From IMG/VR virus record IMGVR_UViG_3300013936_000020: a DNA stretch of 32,005 nt. One strand, written 5' to 3'. The DNA is from an uncultured virus (IMG/VR IMGVR_UViG_3300013936_000020) (taxonomy: Duplodnaviria; Heunggongvirae; Uroviricota; Caudoviricetes). Both the position numbers and the translations under genes were made by a program. Below, piece by piece: positions 17,478-27,133 of this stretch. Every line of letters starts with the position of its first letter. The first letter of the stretch is position 1. Below the pieces are notes generated by a model, which made no database searches, had not been told where the DNA came from, and saw only the letters and a list, made by a program, of their open reading frames with translations.

Positions 17478-18170
17478 CTATTTGCTGATTATTTCTTCAA
17501 TGAATTGATTTGCGAGGATAACACGCTCTTCCATAAGTTTGATGTCCTCCTCGTTACGTTCAATGTCCGCCCAGTGGATAGGCTTTGAGAGCCAAGGGCA
17601 ATACGTAATGAAGATTCCGCTCTTTGCGTTTGTGCAGCTCATTTCAGCCATTATCTGCCAATAGTACTTCGGCTCTGTGTCTTTGAGTGAGGCTGCATCG
17701 TGGATATAAGTACGGTACTTCATGTAAGTATTGAGGTTCGGACACTTGACTTCAAGAATGCGAATATCCTTACCATCACGACCATATATTGCACCATCAG
17801 GACTTGCGGCGAAATGAGGTATCGTGTCGTGCTTGCAGGAAGAAAGCTCTACAATCTCGCTTTCTGGAAATTCCATATTCTGAAAAAGCCTAAGTGCTTC
17901 ATCTTCCTGTTCCGATCCCCACTGCATCGCCTTGGTGGTGAAAGATGTTTGGTCGAGGTAGTCTTGGAAGGCATCATCGTCATTCAAGAAATCGGGATTA
18001 AAGAGGCGTTCGGCTGCGACCTGCATAAGATACGACTTAGCCGTGTCACTCCAAACTTCATCTTTCTTGCGACCAGACTTCATAATGTCGGCTACCTTGC
18101 TCCCACAAATTGAACCGATGCGACTACGAAACCATTCCAACGAACGTTGCTCAATACCCTCTGCTATCAT
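17478..18170 (-). CDS. YqaJ / lambda-exonuclease family recombination nuclease
   Basis: QRSLEWFRSR, AMQWGSEQE, ASPDG, LEVKCP, YYWQ. Confidence 0.92.
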   Translation of the reverse strand: MIAEGIEQRSLEWFRSRIGSICGSKVADIMKSGRKKDEVWSDTAKSYLMQVAAERLFNPDFLNDDDAFQDYLDQTSFTTKAMQWGSEQEDEALRLFQNMEFPESEIVELSSCKHDTIPHFAASPDGAIYGRDGKDIRILEVKCPNLNTYMKYRTYIHDAASLKDTEPKYYWQIMAEMSCTNAKSGIFITYCPWLSKPIHWADIERNEEDIKLMEERVILANQFIEEIISK

Positions 18171-18708
18171 TTGCCTTCCTCCTTCTTAGCCGCTGCATCA
18201 GCCTTTGCAGCCTCGGCAGCTTTGGCAGCGAGATTTTCTTTCTTCTCGCTTTCAAGGTTGTCAACATACTCAGGAGCGAAAGCATCAATATCCAAGTCTT
18301 GGACGTCTGACGTGTTGGTGTTGATTACAGCTTGGTCGAAAGTAACAGCGTTCTGCATTTCAATGGACTTAGGTGCAAATTTCAATATTGATTTGAGAAC
18401 CGTCTTTTGCGCCATAGCATCAAAATCTGATTTCCATGGGGAATTGAAACCAGCACGGAAGGCTTGGCTGAACTTTGTTGCGTGAGCCTTAACCTTGTCA
18501 ATATCCCAATAAGCAACCTTTGTAAAGCCATTCAGAAGCTCGAACTTAGCCATATAGCCGATAACCTTGTCAGACTTCTTTTGTTTCTTGTCGAAAACGT
18601 AATCTTCGTCGAACTCGTCACCCGAAATATACTCACCTTCGTGGACTGGAGCTGCAAGAATCTTCTTGAATTGACCGCTGCGTTGGCAAAGTTGCAATAA
18701 ACCTAAAT
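18167..18708 (-). CDS. recT: RecT single-strand annealing protein, exon 2
   Basis: LGLLQLCQRSGQ..PWKSDFDAMAQKTVLK..PKSIE; splicing to exon 1 gives a 279-aa RecT. Confidence 0.92.
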
Positions 18709-19516
18709 CACTAACCCACCGATTTACCATTTCAGTGGAGTGGACTATCTCTTCACCATTACAGGTGTCTCGCACTTGGGCGTGTGATAAATCCACGCCT
18801 ACTCGGTTACACTCATCACCGATAGTCTCTACACTCCAATATTTCCAAACAAATCCTCGAAAATGTTTTCTAACTCCTTTAAGAGCCTTACAGAGCCTGT
18901 CGTTCCCACATTGAAAATGTTCTGCTGCATCTTTTATAGAGCGGAAATAGCAAAAGCTAAATTCATCCTCTGTGTACCCATAAATGGCTTTATAAATAGG
19001 AGGATGCGGAATTTTTCCTTTATTAGCTTTCGATATTTTTATTCTTGACTCAAAAGTATGTTTCTTTCCAAGATTTGCTACCCTCAGTTTTTGACGTGTT
19101 TCTTCGCTTACCGAATGTCCGATTTTTGGTCCAGTAAGTTGTGCTAACTTGACTTTCTTCTCTTTATCGGTTTTTCTTTCCCACTGTGCTCGTGCGCACT
19201 TTGCAAGATAAGCACGTTCATTGTCGGAAGGATGATAACCTTTAGAGCCCTTGCCTCCAATAGTCATATTATAAGATGCAGAAAGTTTGTTTATCCAGAA
19301 AATTTCCTTTGAATCAAGCTCTTCTTTTTGGCATTCCTCTAAAACCGAAAATGTGAAATTCCCAAATCCGTATTTTTTTAAAGCTCTACAGATAAGCCTA
19401 TTCCCTTTGGTGCTACAAGGACATCTGTGCTCCATCATTCTACGATGTAAATCCACACTTTGCCCGACGTATATATCCCCTGTAATATTATTAGTTAAAG
19501 AATAAATACCAATCAT
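18167..19516 (-). CDS. Intron-encoded GIY-YIG homing endonuclease with NUMOD repeats, open in frame into recT exon 2
   Basis: GIYSLTN..IYVGQS..R; NUMOD3-like HSVSEETRQKL/HTFESRIKIS; NUMOD1-like FRSIKDAA..GFVWKY; no stop before 18167. Confidence 0.9.
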   Translation of the reverse strand: MIGIYSLTNNITGDIYVGQSVDLHRRMMEHRCPCSTKGNRLICRALKKYGFGNFTFSVLEECQKEELDSKEIFWINKLSASYNMTIGGKGSKGYHPSDNERAYLAKCARAQWERKTDKEKKVKLAQLTGPKIGHSVSEETRQKLRVANLGKKHTFESRIKISKANKGKIPHPPIYKAIYGYTEDEFSFCYFRSIKDAAEHFQCGNDRLCKALKGVRKHFRGFVWKYWSVETIGDECNRVGVDLSHAQVRDTCNGEEIVHSTEMVNRWVSDLGLLQLCQRSGQFKKILAAPVHEGEYISGDEFDEDYVFDKKQKKSDKVIGYMAKFELLNGFTKVAYWDIDKVKAHATKFSQAFRAGFNSPWKSDFDAMAQKTVLKSILKFAPKSIEMQNAVTFDQAVINTNTSDVQDLDIDAFAPEYVDNLESEKKENLAAKAAEAAKADAAAKKEEGK

Positions 19517-19638
19517 TGTTTAAAAATATTAAAGCACGGTATTGCCCTTTATTGGAGGGTTTCACCGTTAGCCATACATAGTATGACACCGTTTTTTCTT
19601 ACGTTCACGAGATTTTACTTGACCATAACTTTTGGTTT
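18709..19638 (-). mobile_element. Group I self-splicing intron (IA-like, 930 nt) in recT
   Basis: Exon UUGGCU pairs with IGS GGUCAA including a U.G at the 5' splice site; terminal G 18709; P7 strands AGAGACUA (18823-18830) and GAUAGUCC; P3 UCUCGU/GCGAGA; P4/P5 CGGUGAAACCCU..AGGGCAAUACCG; two extra hairpins between P7 and P3; splicing restores QFQIG-Y-LGLLQL. Confidence 0.93.
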
Positions 19639-19936
19639 AGCCAATTTGAAACTGTGCCTTCTTTCCGTAAGGGATGATGTAGCACTGACCCAATGTAGGG
19701 ATAACCTGCAACTGCATCGTGGCTGCAACCATCGCTGCTCCGATAATGCTCATTGGCTCTGCGTTGCGAAGTTGTGGGTTTCCGTTGGCTACACTGATAA
19801 CCGAACTCATAAAGCTGTTAGCCATCTGTGGGCTATTCCAAACCTCGTTAAGTTTACCAACAACGGCAGGAGAGTGCATCAACTCTCCCAACGACATACC
19901 AGTATTTTGTTGCTGCGTTGTAACTTGTGTTGTCAT
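19639..19936 (-). CDS. recT: RecT single-strand annealing protein, exon 1
   Basis: SIIGAAMVAA..L..LGQCYIIPY..AQFQIG; unspliced reading stops at the TAA created by the exon/intron junction. Confidence 0.92.
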
Positions 19937-21531: not shown

Positions 21532-21999
21532 TTATATAATAGGTTTGTAATTATACTTGACGCTTACCCCGCCACCATCCCTTTTTGGCAGGCACTTGAC
21601 GATAGCCTCAAGGAACACCACATTAGGATCTCCGTTATGCCTTCGTTTGTTGTGCTTGATGATTTTTCGTACCATCAGCTTACGAACGATGGCGAACTCA
21701 CGAAAACTATGTGTGTACGACGACTTGACATCGCAGATGACCAATGTGTCACCCTTGTAGTAAACGAAGTCGGCGTGATACATGACAGGAAACTCCAACA
21801 GTTTCTTTATTAGCTTGTCTTTCGTCTTCAAGTGCTTGACGACAATTTGCTCCTGCTTGGGAACAAGCATGAACCCAGTCTGCCGATGTACGCAGCTTAC
21901 GTCAGGGTCGGCGATCAATTCAAGGTAGAAGCCAAGTTCTTCCTTCGAATCGAAGGTCATTCCGTCGTACTCAACCTTGGATTGCGTCACCCTAACCAT
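21532..21999 (-). CDS. DUF1064-like PD-(D/E)XK nuclease (putative resolvase)
   Basis: DGMTFDSKEE..YHADFVY..ICDVKS. Confidence 0.8.
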   Translation of the reverse strand: MVRVTQSKVEYDGMTFDSKEELGFYLELIADPDVSCVHRQTGFMLVPKQEQIVVKHLKTKDKLIKKLLEFPVMYHADFVYYKGDTLVICDVKSSYTHSFREFAIVRKLMVRKIIKHNKRRHNGDPNVVFLEAIVKCLPKRDGGGVSVKYNYKPII

Positions 22000-22268
22000 G
22001 CCTTGCCCGCCTCCTTGACCGGGTTTTTCAACAGAAGCTGGAATGCGTTAACGCCGAAACGTTGCCACTTTCCGTTTTCCCACTGCACGAGGTATTCATT
22101 CTTGAACGCCTCGCGTTTTCCGTCCGTAGCCTCTTGCTTCAACATAACAACTATGTTTCCGTCATCCAGAAAGCCAACGTATTCGACGGCATCGAGCCTT
22201 AGAATCTCGCCAACCGTCTCCTTTCTTATTCTAATATGTCTTAGTACTTTCATCATTTTTTTTGACAT
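21987..22268 (-). CDS. Hypothetical protein
   Basis: 93-aa ORF overlapping the next start. Confidence 0.6.
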   Translation of the reverse strand: MSKKMMKVLRHIRIRKETVGEILRLDAVEYVGFLDDGNIVVMLKQEATDGKREAFKNEYLVQWENGKWQRFGVNAFQLLLKNPVKEAGKAWLG

Positions 22269-22381
22269 AAAAATGAAGCCATCCTGTTACCAGGTTTACA
22301 ATCCTCCCTCTCACGCTAAGGCAGGATGGCTTCGACACGTGAGGCTTAGTATCAACCAATAAATATTTAAACAATATGGCG

Positions 22382-22464
22382 CGGTGGGTGTAGGGATCGA
22401 ACCTACGAATCGTTTCCGACTTACACGTTAGCAATGTGCTGCATTACCGCTCTGCCAACCCACC
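22382..22464 (-). tRNA. tRNA-Ser(GCT)
   Basis: GGTGGGT/ACCCACC acceptor, loop TTGCTAA, long variable arm, GGTTCGATCC T-arm, G discriminator; one mismatch in the anticodon stem. Confidence 0.9.
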
Positions 22465-22556
22465 TGAAGCCTCCTACCTTCACAGGCAAGAGGTGTGAAA
22501 AACATTACAAATCTAATCACCATTATTTAAATTAAAGAAAACAGCCTATTTCGATA

Positions 22557-22667
22557 GGCGAGGAGGCAGGACTCGAACCTGCATCTGACGGATATACCGC
22601 AGTCCTGTCCGATGCGCCATTCCTACAGTGGTCGCATCCGCTTCCTTGGCGTTGGACGACACCTCGC
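22557..22667 (-). ncRNA. Non-canonical tRNA-like RNA with a D-loop insertion
   Basis: Acceptor GCGAGGTG/CTCCTCGC; perfect T-arm GCAGG-TTCGAGT-CCTGC; D-stem GTCC/GGAC enclosing an extra hairpin; shrunken anticodon loop. Confidence 0.65.
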
Positions 22668-22783
22668 AAACAATAACCAATTAATATTTACCTAAACTAA
22701 AAGAACTTTCTTTGAAAGAGCACCCTATTCTCACGAACAAGGTATAATTTTTGAACATGGAATTTATAAACTATGATTTTAAT

Positions 22784-22871
22784 TGGAGGCGAGGACTCAG
22801 CGAAGAGCCACCTGCGACGATAAGAACGGTATCATTGGTTGTCGCCGTGCATCGGTTACACCACACGCCTC
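22784..22871 (-). ncRNA. Non-canonical tRNA-like RNA with an expanded anticodon arm
   Basis: Acceptor GAGGCGTG/CTCGCCTC; D-stem GTGT/GCAC; stem GCGAC/GTCGC enclosing 22 nt; T-arm GGCTC-TTCGCT-GAGTC. Confidence 0.6.
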
Positions 22872-23193
22872 TTTATGTATTAATGAAAAATCTAAAAAAT
22901 TCTTCACCAGAAATTATTTATAGCCATCATTCCGTTGGCTTAAATAGGGAAATATCTCCCCGTTTAGCTACCCTATATTTCTATTACAGCATATCCATTT
23001 GCTTGCCACGACAATTCTTCTGTGGTTTTATCGCCGAGAATAGGCGGCCATCCTTCCGTGGTAGTCCATTTGTAGCTACAATAAACTATAGCTTGAGTAG
23101 TCTTCCGTATGTCGTGCGTCCTTTCACACCGTCATGGATTGCTGGTCTCGTGATGTTACTTTTTACACGCATACTTTCTGTGCATTTCCAACA

Positions 23194-23204
23194 TGTCAAA
23201 GAGC
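23194..23204 (-). promoter_or_regulatory. boxA-like antitermination element
   Basis: GCTCTTTGACA versus consensus GCTCTTTAACA, on the sense strand of the early operon. Confidence 0.6.
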
Positions 23205-23240
23205 TTCCCTCTCGTTCCTAACAACGGAACTTGAAAGTTG

Positions 23241-23312
23241 TCGCCCGAAGGAGAATCGAACTCCTAATCTCGGTTTAGGAAACCGATGTTTTATCCATTG
23301 AACTATCGGGCG
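23241..23312 (-). tRNA. tRNA-Arg(CCT)
   Basis: Full cloverleaf: CGCCCGA/TCGGGCG, TCGGT-TTCCTAA-ACCGA, AGGAG-TTCGATT-CTCCT. Confidence 0.93.
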
Positions 23313-23453: not shown

Positions 23454-23696
23454 CTAAACAACTCTATTTCTCTCAATCATTTTCCTTACGTCAGCCACTT
23501 TATATAATATGGTATTGCGTACCTTGTAATATGGCAGCTCGCCTGACTCACGTAGGTCTTTCACGAAGTCCTTGCTTACTCCACCGAGAAACGCCAGGAT
23601 TGACTTATTGGTCAGGAACTCCTGGTCTTGCTCCTTCAACGAGATAACCTTCTCTACCACGTCGATGCCGACCTTGGTGTGATACTTTGGTGGCAT
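23454..23696 (-). CDS. HTH_17 excisionase-like DNA-binding protein
   Basis: FLTNKSILAFLGGVSKDFVKDLRESGELPYYKV..ILYKVADV. Confidence 0.75.
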   Translation of the reverse strand: MPPKYHTKVGIDVVEKVISLKEQDQEFLTNKSILAFLGGVSKDFVKDLRESGELPYYKVRNTILYKVADVRKMIERNRVV

Positions 23697-24391: not shown

Positions 24392-24613
24392 CTACTCGCA
24401 AGGAACAGCGGTTATAATCGCCGTATGGTTCTTATAGTCTGCCGAGGTAGAGTATTTTAGTACTCCTTTCGGCAAGTCCTCATACTGAGCGAGCTGATAA
24501 GCGTATGTTACAGCCGACCTAACAGCCCTTGCGGACTCAAGCAGGAAGACTTCAAACTTACCCGGCTTGATGCCCAATATGTCTTGTTTTGTTATTCTTG
24601 CAACTTTTTTCAT
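24392..24613 (-). CDS. First early gene (Cro position), hypothetical
   Basis: Divergent from the repressor; role inferred from position only. Confidence 0.6.
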   Translation of the reverse strand: MKKVARITKQDILGIKPGKFEVFLLESARAVRSAVTYAYQLAQYEDLPKGVLKYSTSADYKNHTAIITAVPCE

Positions 24614-25924: not shown

Positions 25925-27133
25925 ATGAACAGTATCAAGACTTACGTAGAGAGCAAGACGATGTATGTGTATTTCATCGTATCTTACAACAAGAAGAGAT
26001 TCCAGGTCTTCACTGGCTTGAAGAGTACTGAGAAATTTGATGGACTTGTTTTTCCTCAGTCCGTCCCGAACCATCGTGTCAAGACTTTTAGACTAACAAA
26101 GTTGTATTCCGAGGTGGAGGAATACCTTATTGGCCACGACGGAGAGCCGACTAACTTAATGAAGGAGCACATCAAGTCCATAATCAACGGAGGCGAGGTC
26201 GAGGTTGAAAAGAACATCCTCTACTACATAGACGAATATATCAAGACAAAGCCGAAGGAGAGTACCAAGCAAGTCTTTCTGACCACAAAGAAAAGAATCG
26301 AGAGTTTCGACGGACATGCCACTTTCGACACCATAGACAGAGACTGGCTTGAGAGATTCCAGGCACACGAGATATTGAAAGGACGCCTTATCAACGGAAT
26401 CGGCATCGACCTAAGAAACATACGGACTGTGTTCAACTGGGCCATAGACAATGAAATTACCGCCAAATATCCATTCAGAAAGTTCTCCATCAAGACAGAG
26501 CGTCAGCAATATCTGTACTTGAACGCAGATGAGATGAGAGAATACAGGGATTTTCCTGTCGAACCTTTTATGGAGAAGTACCGAGACTTGTTTATGTTAG
26601 GGTTCTATCTGATAGGAATAAACCTATCAGACTTATTGGAGCTTCCAGCCGATTGCATCAAGCATGGACGAATACAATACAAGCGGAACAAGACCGGACG
26701 CTTGTATGACATCAAGGTGGAGCCAGAGGCGATGGAGATAATCAAGAAGTACAAAGGCAAGGAGCACCTGCTGAACATTCTTGACGGCGGACAGACCAAA
26801 GAATCAAGTTTCAGAAGAACACTTGGGGATTACTTAAAGCGCATTGGACCAACTACTATGAAGAAAAATAAAAAGGGAGCGTTGATCAAGAAAGCAATCA
26901 CACCACTCCACAAGGATATTGTTTGGTACACTGCGAGAAGAAGCTGGGCCACGATAGCTGCGAGCCTTGACATTCCAAAAGAGACCATAGGCAAAGCCCT
27001 TGGTCATAGCGAGTGGGATTCAAGTACGACTGACCTCTACATCCAGTTCGACAACAAAAAAATAGACGATGCCAACCGTAAGGTGATAGATTACCTCAAC
27101 TCAGACAAAAAAGAAAGCCCTGCCACCGACTAA
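25925..27133 (+). CDS. int: Tyrosine integrase (Bacteroidetes type)
   Basis: YKRNKT, YTARRSWAT, LGHS, TTDLYI; SAM-like core-binding region; adjacent attP. Confidence 0.93.
   Translation: MNSIKTYVESKTMYVYFIVSYNKKRFQVFTGLKSTEKFDGLVFPQSVPNHRVKTFRLTKLYSEVEEYLIGHDGEPTNLMKEHIKSIINGGEVEVEKNILYYIDEYIKTKPKESTKQVFLTTKKRIESFDGHATFDTIDRDWLERFQAHEILKGRLINGIGIDLRNIRTVFNWAIDNEITAKYPFRKFSIKTERQQYLYLNADEMREYRDFPVEPFMEKYRDLFMLGFYLIGINLSDLLELPADCIKHGRIQYKRNKTGRLYDIKVEPEAMEIIKKYKGKEHLLNILDGGQTKESSFRRTLGDYLKRIGPTTMKKNKKGALIKKAITPLHKDIVWYTARRSWATIAASLDIPKETIGKALGHSEWDSSTTDLYIQFDNKKIDDANRKVIDYLNSDKKESPATD

Follow-up and report, generated by a model that had tools for sequence, protein, structure and literature searches.

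What kind of RNA, if any, is encoded in a phage tRNA array where the DNA between two ordinary tRNA genes has the shape of tRNA but no anticodon arm of the usual kind? The question is raised by a stretch of 32,005 nucleotides from an uncultured virus (IMG/VR IMGVR_UViG_3300013936_000020), referred to here in its whole length as the window, in which two tRNA-shaped structures, elements A and B, lie between tRNA-Arg(CCU) and tRNA-Ser(GCU) (Table 1). Comparison with relatives indicates that B is very probably, and A probably, a real, non-decoding, tRNA-derived RNA. The account of the pair that we favor, tentatively and at somewhat less than even confidence, is that A and B represent two separate families of RNA genes that derive from tRNA and have lost decoding, that would be matured like tRNAs, and that would act via their inner modules.

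The window phage has the gene set of a temperate phage, with integrase, cI-like repressor, RecT, exonuclease, SSB, dUTPase, endolysin and tail fibre genes recognized by PHROG and Pfam comparisons, and it also encodes a homing endonuclease. Minus-strand genes extend from about position 24613 down to about 7300, and both elements are located in a 1-kb non-coding stretch of this early (replication and recombination) operon, bordered by genes for an HTH_17 protein and a 93-aa protein. No candidate protein partner is apparent among the neighbors, which include the HTH_17 protein, a KilA-N protein, a DUF1064 resolvase-like protein and the 93-aa protein. The strand and spacing of A and B are those of the true tRNAs of the array, tRNA-Arg(CCU) lies 351–567 nt upstream of B in 47 of the 48 sources examined, and the flanks of the array are homologs of one constant pair of small proteins. 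A further conserved segment between tRNA-Arg and B, the 'up' element, is possibly a third structured RNA.

Table 1. Positions of the RNA elements, their parts and the neighboring genes in the window.
Feature	Position	Strand	Remarks
Tyrosine integrase	25925-27133	plus	PHROG/Pfam scans
HTH_17 protein	23454-23696		Borders the 1-kb non-coding stretch
tRNA-Arg(CCU)	23240-23312	minus	Canonical; ARAGORN and Rfam; first gene of the array
'up' element	23105..23204	minus	Conserved, between tRNA-Arg and B; sequence comparison
Element B, whole (87 nt)	22785..22871 (22871->22785)	minus	tRNA-shaped, with extended, bulged 'anticodon' arm
B acceptor, 5' strand GAGGCGUG	22864..22871	minus	Pairs with 22786-22793 (CUCGCCUC); then C at 22785
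B D arm GUGU-AACCGAU-GCAC	22847..22861	minus	100% of cells paired; 1 pair changed on both sides
B anticodon-side arm	22814..22845	minus	Stem, bulge and hairpin
B outer stem GCGAC/GUCGC	22841-22845 with 22814-22818	minus	100% paired; 4/5 pairs changed on both sides
B bulge AACCAAU (7 nt)	22834-22840	minus	One-sided
B invariant hairpin GAUA-CCGUUCU-UAUC (15 nt)	22819-22833	minus	Stem never varies
B T arm GGCUC-UUCGCU-GAGUC	22794..22809	minus	4/5 pairs changed on both sides
Element A, whole (111 nt including final C)	22557..22667 (22667->22557)	minus	Read from sequence
A acceptor, 5' strand GCGAGGUG	22660..22667	minus	Pairs with 22558-22565 (CUCCUCGC); then C at 22557
A inner module	22602..22657	minus	GUCC...GGAC around CGC-CAAGGAA-GCG and long hairpin GAUGCG-A-CCA-CUGUAGGAA-UGG-CGCAUC; RNAalifold prediction
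A small hairpin GCGG-UAUAU-CCGU (5-nt loop)	22588..22600	minus	Closing pair G-U, U-A or G-C; loop invariant (3 sequences)
A T arm GCAGG-UUCGAGU-CCUGC	22566..22582	minus	Canonical; 2/5 pairs changed on both sides
Terminator-like hairpin GCCUAUCGAAAUAGGC and U-rich tail	22534..22559	minus	GCC in common with A 3' end
tRNA-Ser(GCU)	22381-22464	minus	Canonical; ARAGORN and Rfam; last gene of the array
93-aa protein, no assigned function	21987-22268		Other border of the 1-kb non-coding stretch

The limits assigned to the two structures in a preliminary description (22557..22871) are exact. Element B reads GAGGCGUG / UG / GUGU-AACCGAU-GCAC / G / GCGAC-[AACCAAU]-GAUA-CCGUUCU-UAUC-GUCGC / AGGU / GGCUC-UUCGCU-GAGUC / CUCGCCUC / C, and there are several features of its organization among relatives. 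First, the position of the anticodon loop is occupied, as had been described, by a 22-nt structured insert composed of the 7-nt bulge and the 15-nt hairpin. Second, no change is seen at U8, in most of the D stem, in the AA with which the D loop and the bulge each begin, or in the hairpin GAUA-CC..UCU-UAUC. Third, variation is greatest in the remainder of the bulge and at the two middle bases of the hairpin loop; the bulge (7–8 nt) is found as AACCAAU, AACUGGAA, AACAAAAU, AACUAGAU, AACUAUU, AAAAAUAU or AACUUAAA, and the middle loop bases as GU, GA, AA or UU. The triplet that follows the AA of the bulge is, in six of these seven types, CUA (twice), CAA, CCA, CUG or CUU, each at most one change from the amber anticodon CUA. 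A pseudoknot of the bulge with the loop was considered and rejected, the same bulge being found alongside different loops. Fourth, the variable region is 4–6 nt long. Finally, the sublineages differ in the loops that form the tRNA elbow, which some keep and others lose: B of the window has a 6-nt T loop without the canonical UUCGAAU form, as most copies have a loop of this length, and a D loop without GG; relatives L002 and L003 combine a canonical, GG-containing D loop with a canonical 7-nt T loop, and GG together with a T loop of 7 nt is also seen in the L102 and L125 types, the T loop of L125 being canonical.

The window sequence taken alone makes a weak case for either element, since the folding energies of the two elements relative to shuffled sequences are unremarkable (z = -0.43 and -0.53; the two true tRNAs give -2.43 and -2.66), and it is the relatives that carry the case. 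Through the two array-flanking proteins 97 IMG/VR loci were gathered, in which blastn identifies B in L001, L036 and L006–L009, and a pattern containing the B hairpin matched 41 IMG/VR stretches, with hits that collapse to 14 distinct sequences. When 10 distinct B sequences are aligned with plain MAFFT, 98.5% of the cells are paired in the hand-drawn structure and 8 pairs are changed on both sides, and RNAalifold recovers the same fold unaided from a plain MAFFT alignment. A covariance model built for B, R1, scores window B at 99.3 bits and yields an alignment of 43 matches from 43 sources (loci repeating the same contigs were left out), in whose 17 distinct rows 98.0% of the cells pair and both partners have changed in 14 of 26 pairs, among them 5 of the 8 pairs of the acceptor helix. 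Not one of 500 shuffles reaches any of these measures, and sliding the partners by 1–3 columns gives 31–53% paired cells. Being model-fitted, the R1 alignment leans towards the structure, a bias from which the unaided RNAalifold fold is free. All of the helices covary except the inner 4-bp hairpin, which never varies; this invariance is partly circular, as the 41 loci were fetched by a pattern containing the hairpin, but the hairpin is also invariant in the five distinct B sequences reached via the neighbor proteins (L001, L002, L003, L006 and L036) and unchanged in B of L266, a locus reached through A.

A loose pattern applied to a genome collection returned at least 120 stretches, and among the 80 loci scored with R1 one (L175) contains B, in a prophage-like array of Segatella copri HDD04; Segatella is a major human gut commensal genus. 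With stricter filters R1 finds B in one of 151 genomes of the host genus, again the HDD04 prophage copy, and B is phage cargo, not part of the host core. A blastn search of a cultured-phage collection with the 1.1-kb array returned nine records, all of which match the tRNA-Ser part only.

Element A reads GCGAGGUG / UC / GUCC-AA-(CGC-CAAGGAA-GCG)(GAUGCG-A-CCA-CUGUAGGAA-UGG-CGCAUC)-GGACA-GGAC / U / GCGG-UAUAU-CCGU / CAGAU / GCAGG-UUCGAGU-CCUGC / CUCCUCGC / C. The perfect T arm and the anticodon loop of about 5 nt attributed to it are both present, the latter as the loop of the small hairpin. The family consists of three distinct sequences from one phage lineage, among which 8 of 33 pairs are changed on both sides, all of them in the acceptor stem, T stem and small hairpin. 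The acceptor strand occurs as GCGAGGUG, CCCCAGAG and AUCUGGAG, with the partner strand changing to match (5 of 8 pairs), and in the small hairpin both bases of the closing pair change. The hairpin-containing insert that had been placed in the D loop is found as a near-invariant module of about 55 nt that replaces the D and anticodon region, but its three inner helices have one-sided changes only, 8 of the 9 pairs of the long hairpin never vary, and its fold is thus predicted rather than proven.

A is rare. Model R2, which gives 133 bits on window A, scores homologs at 132.8 bits in L001 and 111.2 bits in L266, and these are the two contigs to which blastn over the 97 loci and five pattern scans of IMG/VR lead. 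A scan of a metagenome collection gave three loci, two identical to the window (L142 and L143) and one a chance match, and a pattern scan of the genome collection gave none. In IMG/VR, an exact 26-mer from the A 3' end has no matches; an A-core pattern matched two loci, where L140 was rejected as an unrelated GC-rich chance match; another pattern matched 36 loci, none of which scored among the 35 to which R2 was applied (the locus on the L001 contig was left out); and a last scan returned just the two contigs already known. R2 served to weed out chance matches.

Structure is under selection in the relatives of both A and B. Compensatory changes are abundant in each, in agreement with the earlier argument against random decay. 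Selection preserves by shape those parts of a tRNA whose form maturation enzymes recognize, namely the T stem, the acceptor helix with its eighth pair and the C behind it and, in B, the D arm together with U8, and the sequences of these stems drift freely by compensatory change. What is kept by sequence is the anticodon-side modules, namely the B hairpin GAUA-CCNNUCU-UAUC and the two-hairpin module of A. Part of the B decoding region is free or diversifying. The proposal that A and B form one RNA family does not hold, because R1 has no match to A and R2 gives 13–35 bits on B, the level for any tRNA; as neither model recognizes the other element by more than a general resemblance to tRNA, they are two families.

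The preliminary description also gave the two elements a shared, odd 8-bp acceptor stem with a U.U mismatch. Both window helices read as described, and eight positions followed by C are general (17 of 17 distinct B, 3 of 3 distinct A). The U.U pair is not shared: pair 7 of B is U.U in 3 of 17 (the window, L266 and the L036 type), A-U in 12 and G-C in 2, and pair 7 of A is U.U in 1 and A-U in 2 of 3, and U.U is a peculiarity confined to this phage and a few of its relatives, not a design feature. Nor is the stem as odd as it seemed. The outer pair of B is G-C in 16 of 17 and never covaries, but that of A varies between G-C (window), C-G (L001) and A.A (L266), and complementarity between positions -1 and 73 is ordinary in the host, whose tRNA genes mostly read N73-C-A-A, with -1 complementary to N73 in 9 of 14 sampled; 'odd' is therefore an overstatement. 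The eighth pair may belong to a true 8/5 stem followed by an unpaired C, as in tRNA-Sec, a reading favored by L002 and L003, which encode 8 bp, C and CCA. Equally possible is a seven-pair stem with a -1:73 pair and an encoded C74.

If the eighth pair were inside the mature RNA, A and B would resemble tRNA-Sec in having 8 + 5 = 13 stacked pairs, an arrangement that in bacteria is otherwise ascribed to tRNA-Sec alone in PMC5389517 and PMC7609411. Unlike tRNA-Sec, they have no long variable arm, UCA anticodon or 6-bp D stem, and the base after the stem is C rather than G in all of the distinct sequences; the Rfam tRNA-Sec model has no match in the window.

The acceptor end of B raises the question of whether this RNA could be charged with histidine, which we consider unlikely. 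RNase P would leave the extra G, CCA would be added, and HisRS would charge the RNA through G-1:C73 whatever its anticodon, with the RNA, charged or uncharged, titrating HisRS or serving outside the ribosome as a donor of histidine or as a signal. The resemblance to bacterial tRNA-His is close at this end, with an eight-pair acceptor helix that terminates in G:C followed by C. C73 is present among the 14 sampled host tRNAs only in the two tRNA-His, whose genes read G-1...C73-CAA or C73-CUA, and the end of B, G...C-CAA, is identical in every letter to the end of a Segatella copri tRNA-His gene; at the pair that is U.U in A and B of the window, host tRNA-His is mismatched as well (C.U). A neighboring 77-nt family in related arrays likewise has G-1...C73-CCA with non-His loops. 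According to the account in PMC9976931, recognition by bacterial HisRS depends mainly on G-1:C73, which is enough for the charging of minihelices, and HisRS substrates also include plant-virus tRNA-like structures that have an N-1:N73 pair. Against histidine charging, the outer pair of B offers no covariation, G-1:C73 is present in B and in A of the window but is not kept by the A family (N-1:N73 is G:C, C:G or A.A), and in L002 and L003 the CCA begins one base later than at a His-type end, leaving C outside the helix. In addition, A and B differ from tRNA-His in the D arm, most B copies in the 6-nt T loop, and both in lacking a normal anticodon loop with GUG. This anticodon is a secondary HisRS determinant, and B has no 7-nt loop that contains it.

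It is somewhat more likely than not that A and B would be matured by the tRNA pathway, as our preferred reading has it. In each, the T stem stacks on the acceptor stem, and both helices have changes on both sides. However, RNase P uses the tRNA elbow, and given the 6-nt T loop and missing GG of window B the elbow may be lost there, which weakens this step. Conversely, processing might be all that the elements do, as tRNA-shaped RNase P/Z sites at which the early polycistronic transcript is cleaved or RNA ends are defined, with no function as free RNA, an idea to which we attach little credence. It would account for acceptor and T stems that are kept by structure alone and for the location of A and B between genes of one operon, and a terminator-like hairpin overlaps the A 3' end. 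It leaves unexplained the near-invariant inner sequences (the B hairpin and the fixed pairs of the long hairpin in A), and the adjoining true tRNAs already supply such sites. Moreover, the terminator-like hairpin was rejected as a conserved part, as it is absent at this place in L266 and the hairpin in L001 is about 50 nt further on.

Several lines of evidence bear on whether A or B could decode. First, a canonical anticodon arm (5-bp stem, 7-nt loop, U33, purine 37) is absent from both: B has a 5-bp stem, then the one-sided bulge of 7–8 nt and a 4-bp hairpin with the loop CCNNUCU, and A has loops of 5 nt and 9 nt, in keeping with the earlier impression that neither is built to decode. Second, the expectation of weak calls by tRNA finders was borne out, in that ARAGORN calls neither A nor B in the window and Rfam has no tRNA match to them at the gathering score or at E <= 10; for any Rfam 15 family, at the gathering score or permissively at E <= 10, there are chance-level rows only near A and B. 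Third, there is no indication of tmRNA in the region by ARAGORN or Rfam, and the third pair of B is G-C in 15 of 17 rather than G3:U70.

The relatives provide the main grounds for regarding the elements as unusual decoders, that is suppressor, quadruplet-reading or intron-containing tRNAs in which the B bulge (AA-CNN-..) acts as the anticodon or the hairpin is removed; we nonetheless think this improbable. ARAGORN calls tRNA-Leu(UAA) in L002 and L003 and a 4-base 'CUAG' tRNA in L125, the distant relatives L002 and L003 pass the Rfam tRNA model (41.1 bits for the L002 copy of B; cut-off 29), and six of the seven bulge triplets are within one change of CUA. However, the alternative cloverleaf of ARAGORN, with a long variable arm, unpairs the 3' strand of helix 3 and is rejected, for every cell of this helix is paired and 4 of its 5 pairs are changed on both sides. 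U33 is present in no variant, and the hairpin would be expected to block approach to the decoding site. We know of no bacterial mechanism for removing hairpin introns. Amber suppression is likewise rejected, with no sign of TAG recoding in a CUA-type phage: in two 20-kb stretches, frames of at least 100 aa give coverage of 0.83 and 0.99 with the standard code, and the frames of greatest length (2095, 782 and 573 aa) are the same when TAG is read through. The allo-tRNAs with 8/4 and 9/3 acceptor branches resemble A and B in having a non-canonical acceptor branch, an association with phage tRNA clusters and diverse 'anticodons' on one scaffold, but as described in PMC5389517 they retain 12 stacked pairs together with a long variable arm and a normal 7-nt anticodon loop, whereas A and B would have 13 pairs if the eighth is counted and have 5-bp T stems, a short variable region and no such loop.

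That A and B are decaying tRNA pseudogenes, a DNA-level site (an attP core or a homing-endonuclease target) or part of a plus-strand ORF (22751-23221) is scarcely credible. In favor of this are the lack of a tRNA call for either element, the integrase and homing endonuclease genes of the phage and an open frame of 156 aa on the plus strand. On the other side, the helices are maintained by compensatory changes (with the unaided RNAalifold fold countering a model-fit artefact), host sequences resembling A or B are only short T-arm-like or AT-rich matches with no long identity to host tRNA genes, and the ORF, without a PHROG match, has stops or frame breaks in L001, L266, L110, L121, L116 and L134.

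We therefore return to the reading of A and B as tRNA-derived RNAs that act via their inner modules. RNase P and RNase Z would excise them and a tRNA-like form would stabilize them, with the tRNA part as a natural scaffold, and the conserved inner module together with the tRNA-like shape would bind and titrate a tRNA-recognizing protein. A role for both as decoy or sponge of a tRNA-binding protein is possible, if on the unlikely side. Of the roles proposed in the preliminary description (nuclease decoy, synthetase binder or processing signal), none is singled out by the sequence. A candidate target is a host tRNA-targeting defence nuclease; for B, candidates are HisRS or a tRNA-His-specific factor, given that its acceptor end is the same as that of a host tRNA-His gene. 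An antisense target of the B hairpin loop was sought within the window, where there are 11 matches (6.9 expected), none of them convincing. Three further families in related arrays have A33 loops, swapped anticodon arms and His-type G-1:C73-CCA ends, and phage tRNAs are described as countering tRNA-targeting defences in PMC10264068, PMC11555353 and PMC12445682. One could imagine that Segatella temperate phages carry a toolkit of tRNA look-alikes, made up of A, B and these three families, in which the tRNA body is kept for maturation and an anticodon-side 'bait' rapidly diversifies, acting as decoys or inhibitors in an arms race with host tRNA-targeting immunity, with B a mimic of histidine identity whose invariant hairpin would lock onto the attacking enzyme; we regard this extended scenario as rather unlikely.

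A and B, which have no counterpart in Rfam, make up two new RNA families of a type already known in outline, the virus-encoded tRNA look-alikes; a literature search found no description of either, which does not prove that none is in print. The 3' tRNA-like structures of plant viruses are also virus-encoded, tRNA-shaped, handled by tRNA enzymes, non-decoding and, as presented in PMC9976931, equipped with an N-1:N73 pair. Unlike A and B, they are pseudoknotted 3' ends of RNA genomes. The TMER tRNA-like units of gammaherpesviruses are viral, tRNA-shaped, acted on by tRNA enzymes and non-decoding, but their hairpins are downstream of the tRNA-like unit and not inside it as in A and B. The stable RNAs 'species 1 and 2' of phage T4 belong to this group as well and are, like A and B, located inside a phage tRNA cluster. 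Engineered tRNA scaffolds and aptamer-tagged tRNAs, in the account of PMC7590224, also have a foreign hairpin in a tRNA body that the cell processes and stabilizes; these are man-made, whereas A and B are natural and conserved in a phage lineage.

If the favored reading is true, A and B would be natural instances of the principle that RNA engineering exploits in tRNA scaffolds. RNAs of this type escape gene finders, and the 'intergenic' DNA beside phage tRNA genes may hide many more; the prophage copy in a sequenced isolate, Segatella copri HDD04, makes B testable at the bench if the strain is obtainable. Phage tRNA genes are now mainly interpreted, as in PMC10264068 and PMC11555353, as replacing host tRNAs destroyed by defence nucleases. 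Conserved, non-decoding, tRNA-shaped RNAs would add to replacement a second strategy, that of mimicry or titration.

Arrays related to that of the window carry a 77-nt tRNA-like family whose ends, G-1 and C73-CCA, are of the His type and whose T loop is UGCGAAU. The loop of this family has the form GAA[NNN]U, without U33. Bodies that hardly differ receive the calls Thr(AGU), Leu(AAG), Pro(AGG) or Ser(AGA), and most of the variation falls in three loop bases. One copy of B, the probably non-decoding tRNA-shaped RNA following tRNA-Arg in the window, carries the 3′ end of the 77-nt family (T arm and acceptor strand; L107:1166-1255), and looks like the product of a deletion or recombination joining a B gene to a 77-nt family gene.

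In a 73-nt family the acceptor, D and T arms are identical and entire anticodon arms are swapped (CAU, GAU, GGU, AAG, or an 8-nt 'UCAU'), with position 33 mostly A. A further family, 'CUCU', is listed below, as are two tRNA-like stretches that have Rfam matches but no ARAGORN call.

Locations of the features. L-numbers are loci of related DNA, with positions within each locus after the colon.
Feature	Location	Strand	Remarks
77-nt tRNA-like family	L101:1549-1625, L102:1547-1623, L175:2851-2927		plus homologs; related arrays
73-nt tRNA family	L101:1872-1944, L102:1862-1934, L098:515-587		plus homologs
'CUCU' family	L101:1671-1746		8-nt loop, T loop UUGGAGU
tRNA-like stretch	L006:2859-2926		weak Rfam tRNA-Sec match, 28.5 bits
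tRNA-like stretch	L036:515-584		Rfam tRNA match, 44.7 bits
Leader, UUAGGUAAAUAUUAAUGGUUAUUGU	window 22668-22705	-	directly upstream of A
Hairpin, CUCUUGC...GUAGGAG type	window 22470-22500	-	conserved; directly upstream of tRNA-Ser
Hairpin, same type, in L001	L001:3013-3034		downstream of A
'up' element	window 23105-23204	-	conserved; between tRNA-Arg and B
RecT N-terminal part	window 19637-19936	-	
GIY-YIG homing endonuclease, then RecT C-terminal part fused in frame	window 18167-19516	-	

The Segatella copri HDD04 chromosome (L313, positions 1271995-1275024) contains nine tightly arrayed tRNA genes, including a second tRNA-His and a 72-nt tRNA with anticodon UCA that ARAGORN calls SeC, for which it is too small and has no long arm.

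Elsewhere in the window, RecT is split across 18167-19936 (-), a region in which Rfam at E <= 1 gave no group I intron.

The leader of A, the second probably non-decoding tRNA-shaped RNA, is kept in all three A-bearing phages despite the rewritten acceptor stem adjoining it; it fits neither a sigma-70 scan nor the Bacteroidetes promoter motif. The 'up' element is carried by 29 distinct inter-element sequences and has no match in Rfam. It contains a long-range helix, in which 23174-23166 pairs with 23116-23107, and an inner hairpin with compensatory variants (GCAUC/GAUGC versus GCGC/GCGC). The element is a candidate for a third RNA that lacks annotation.
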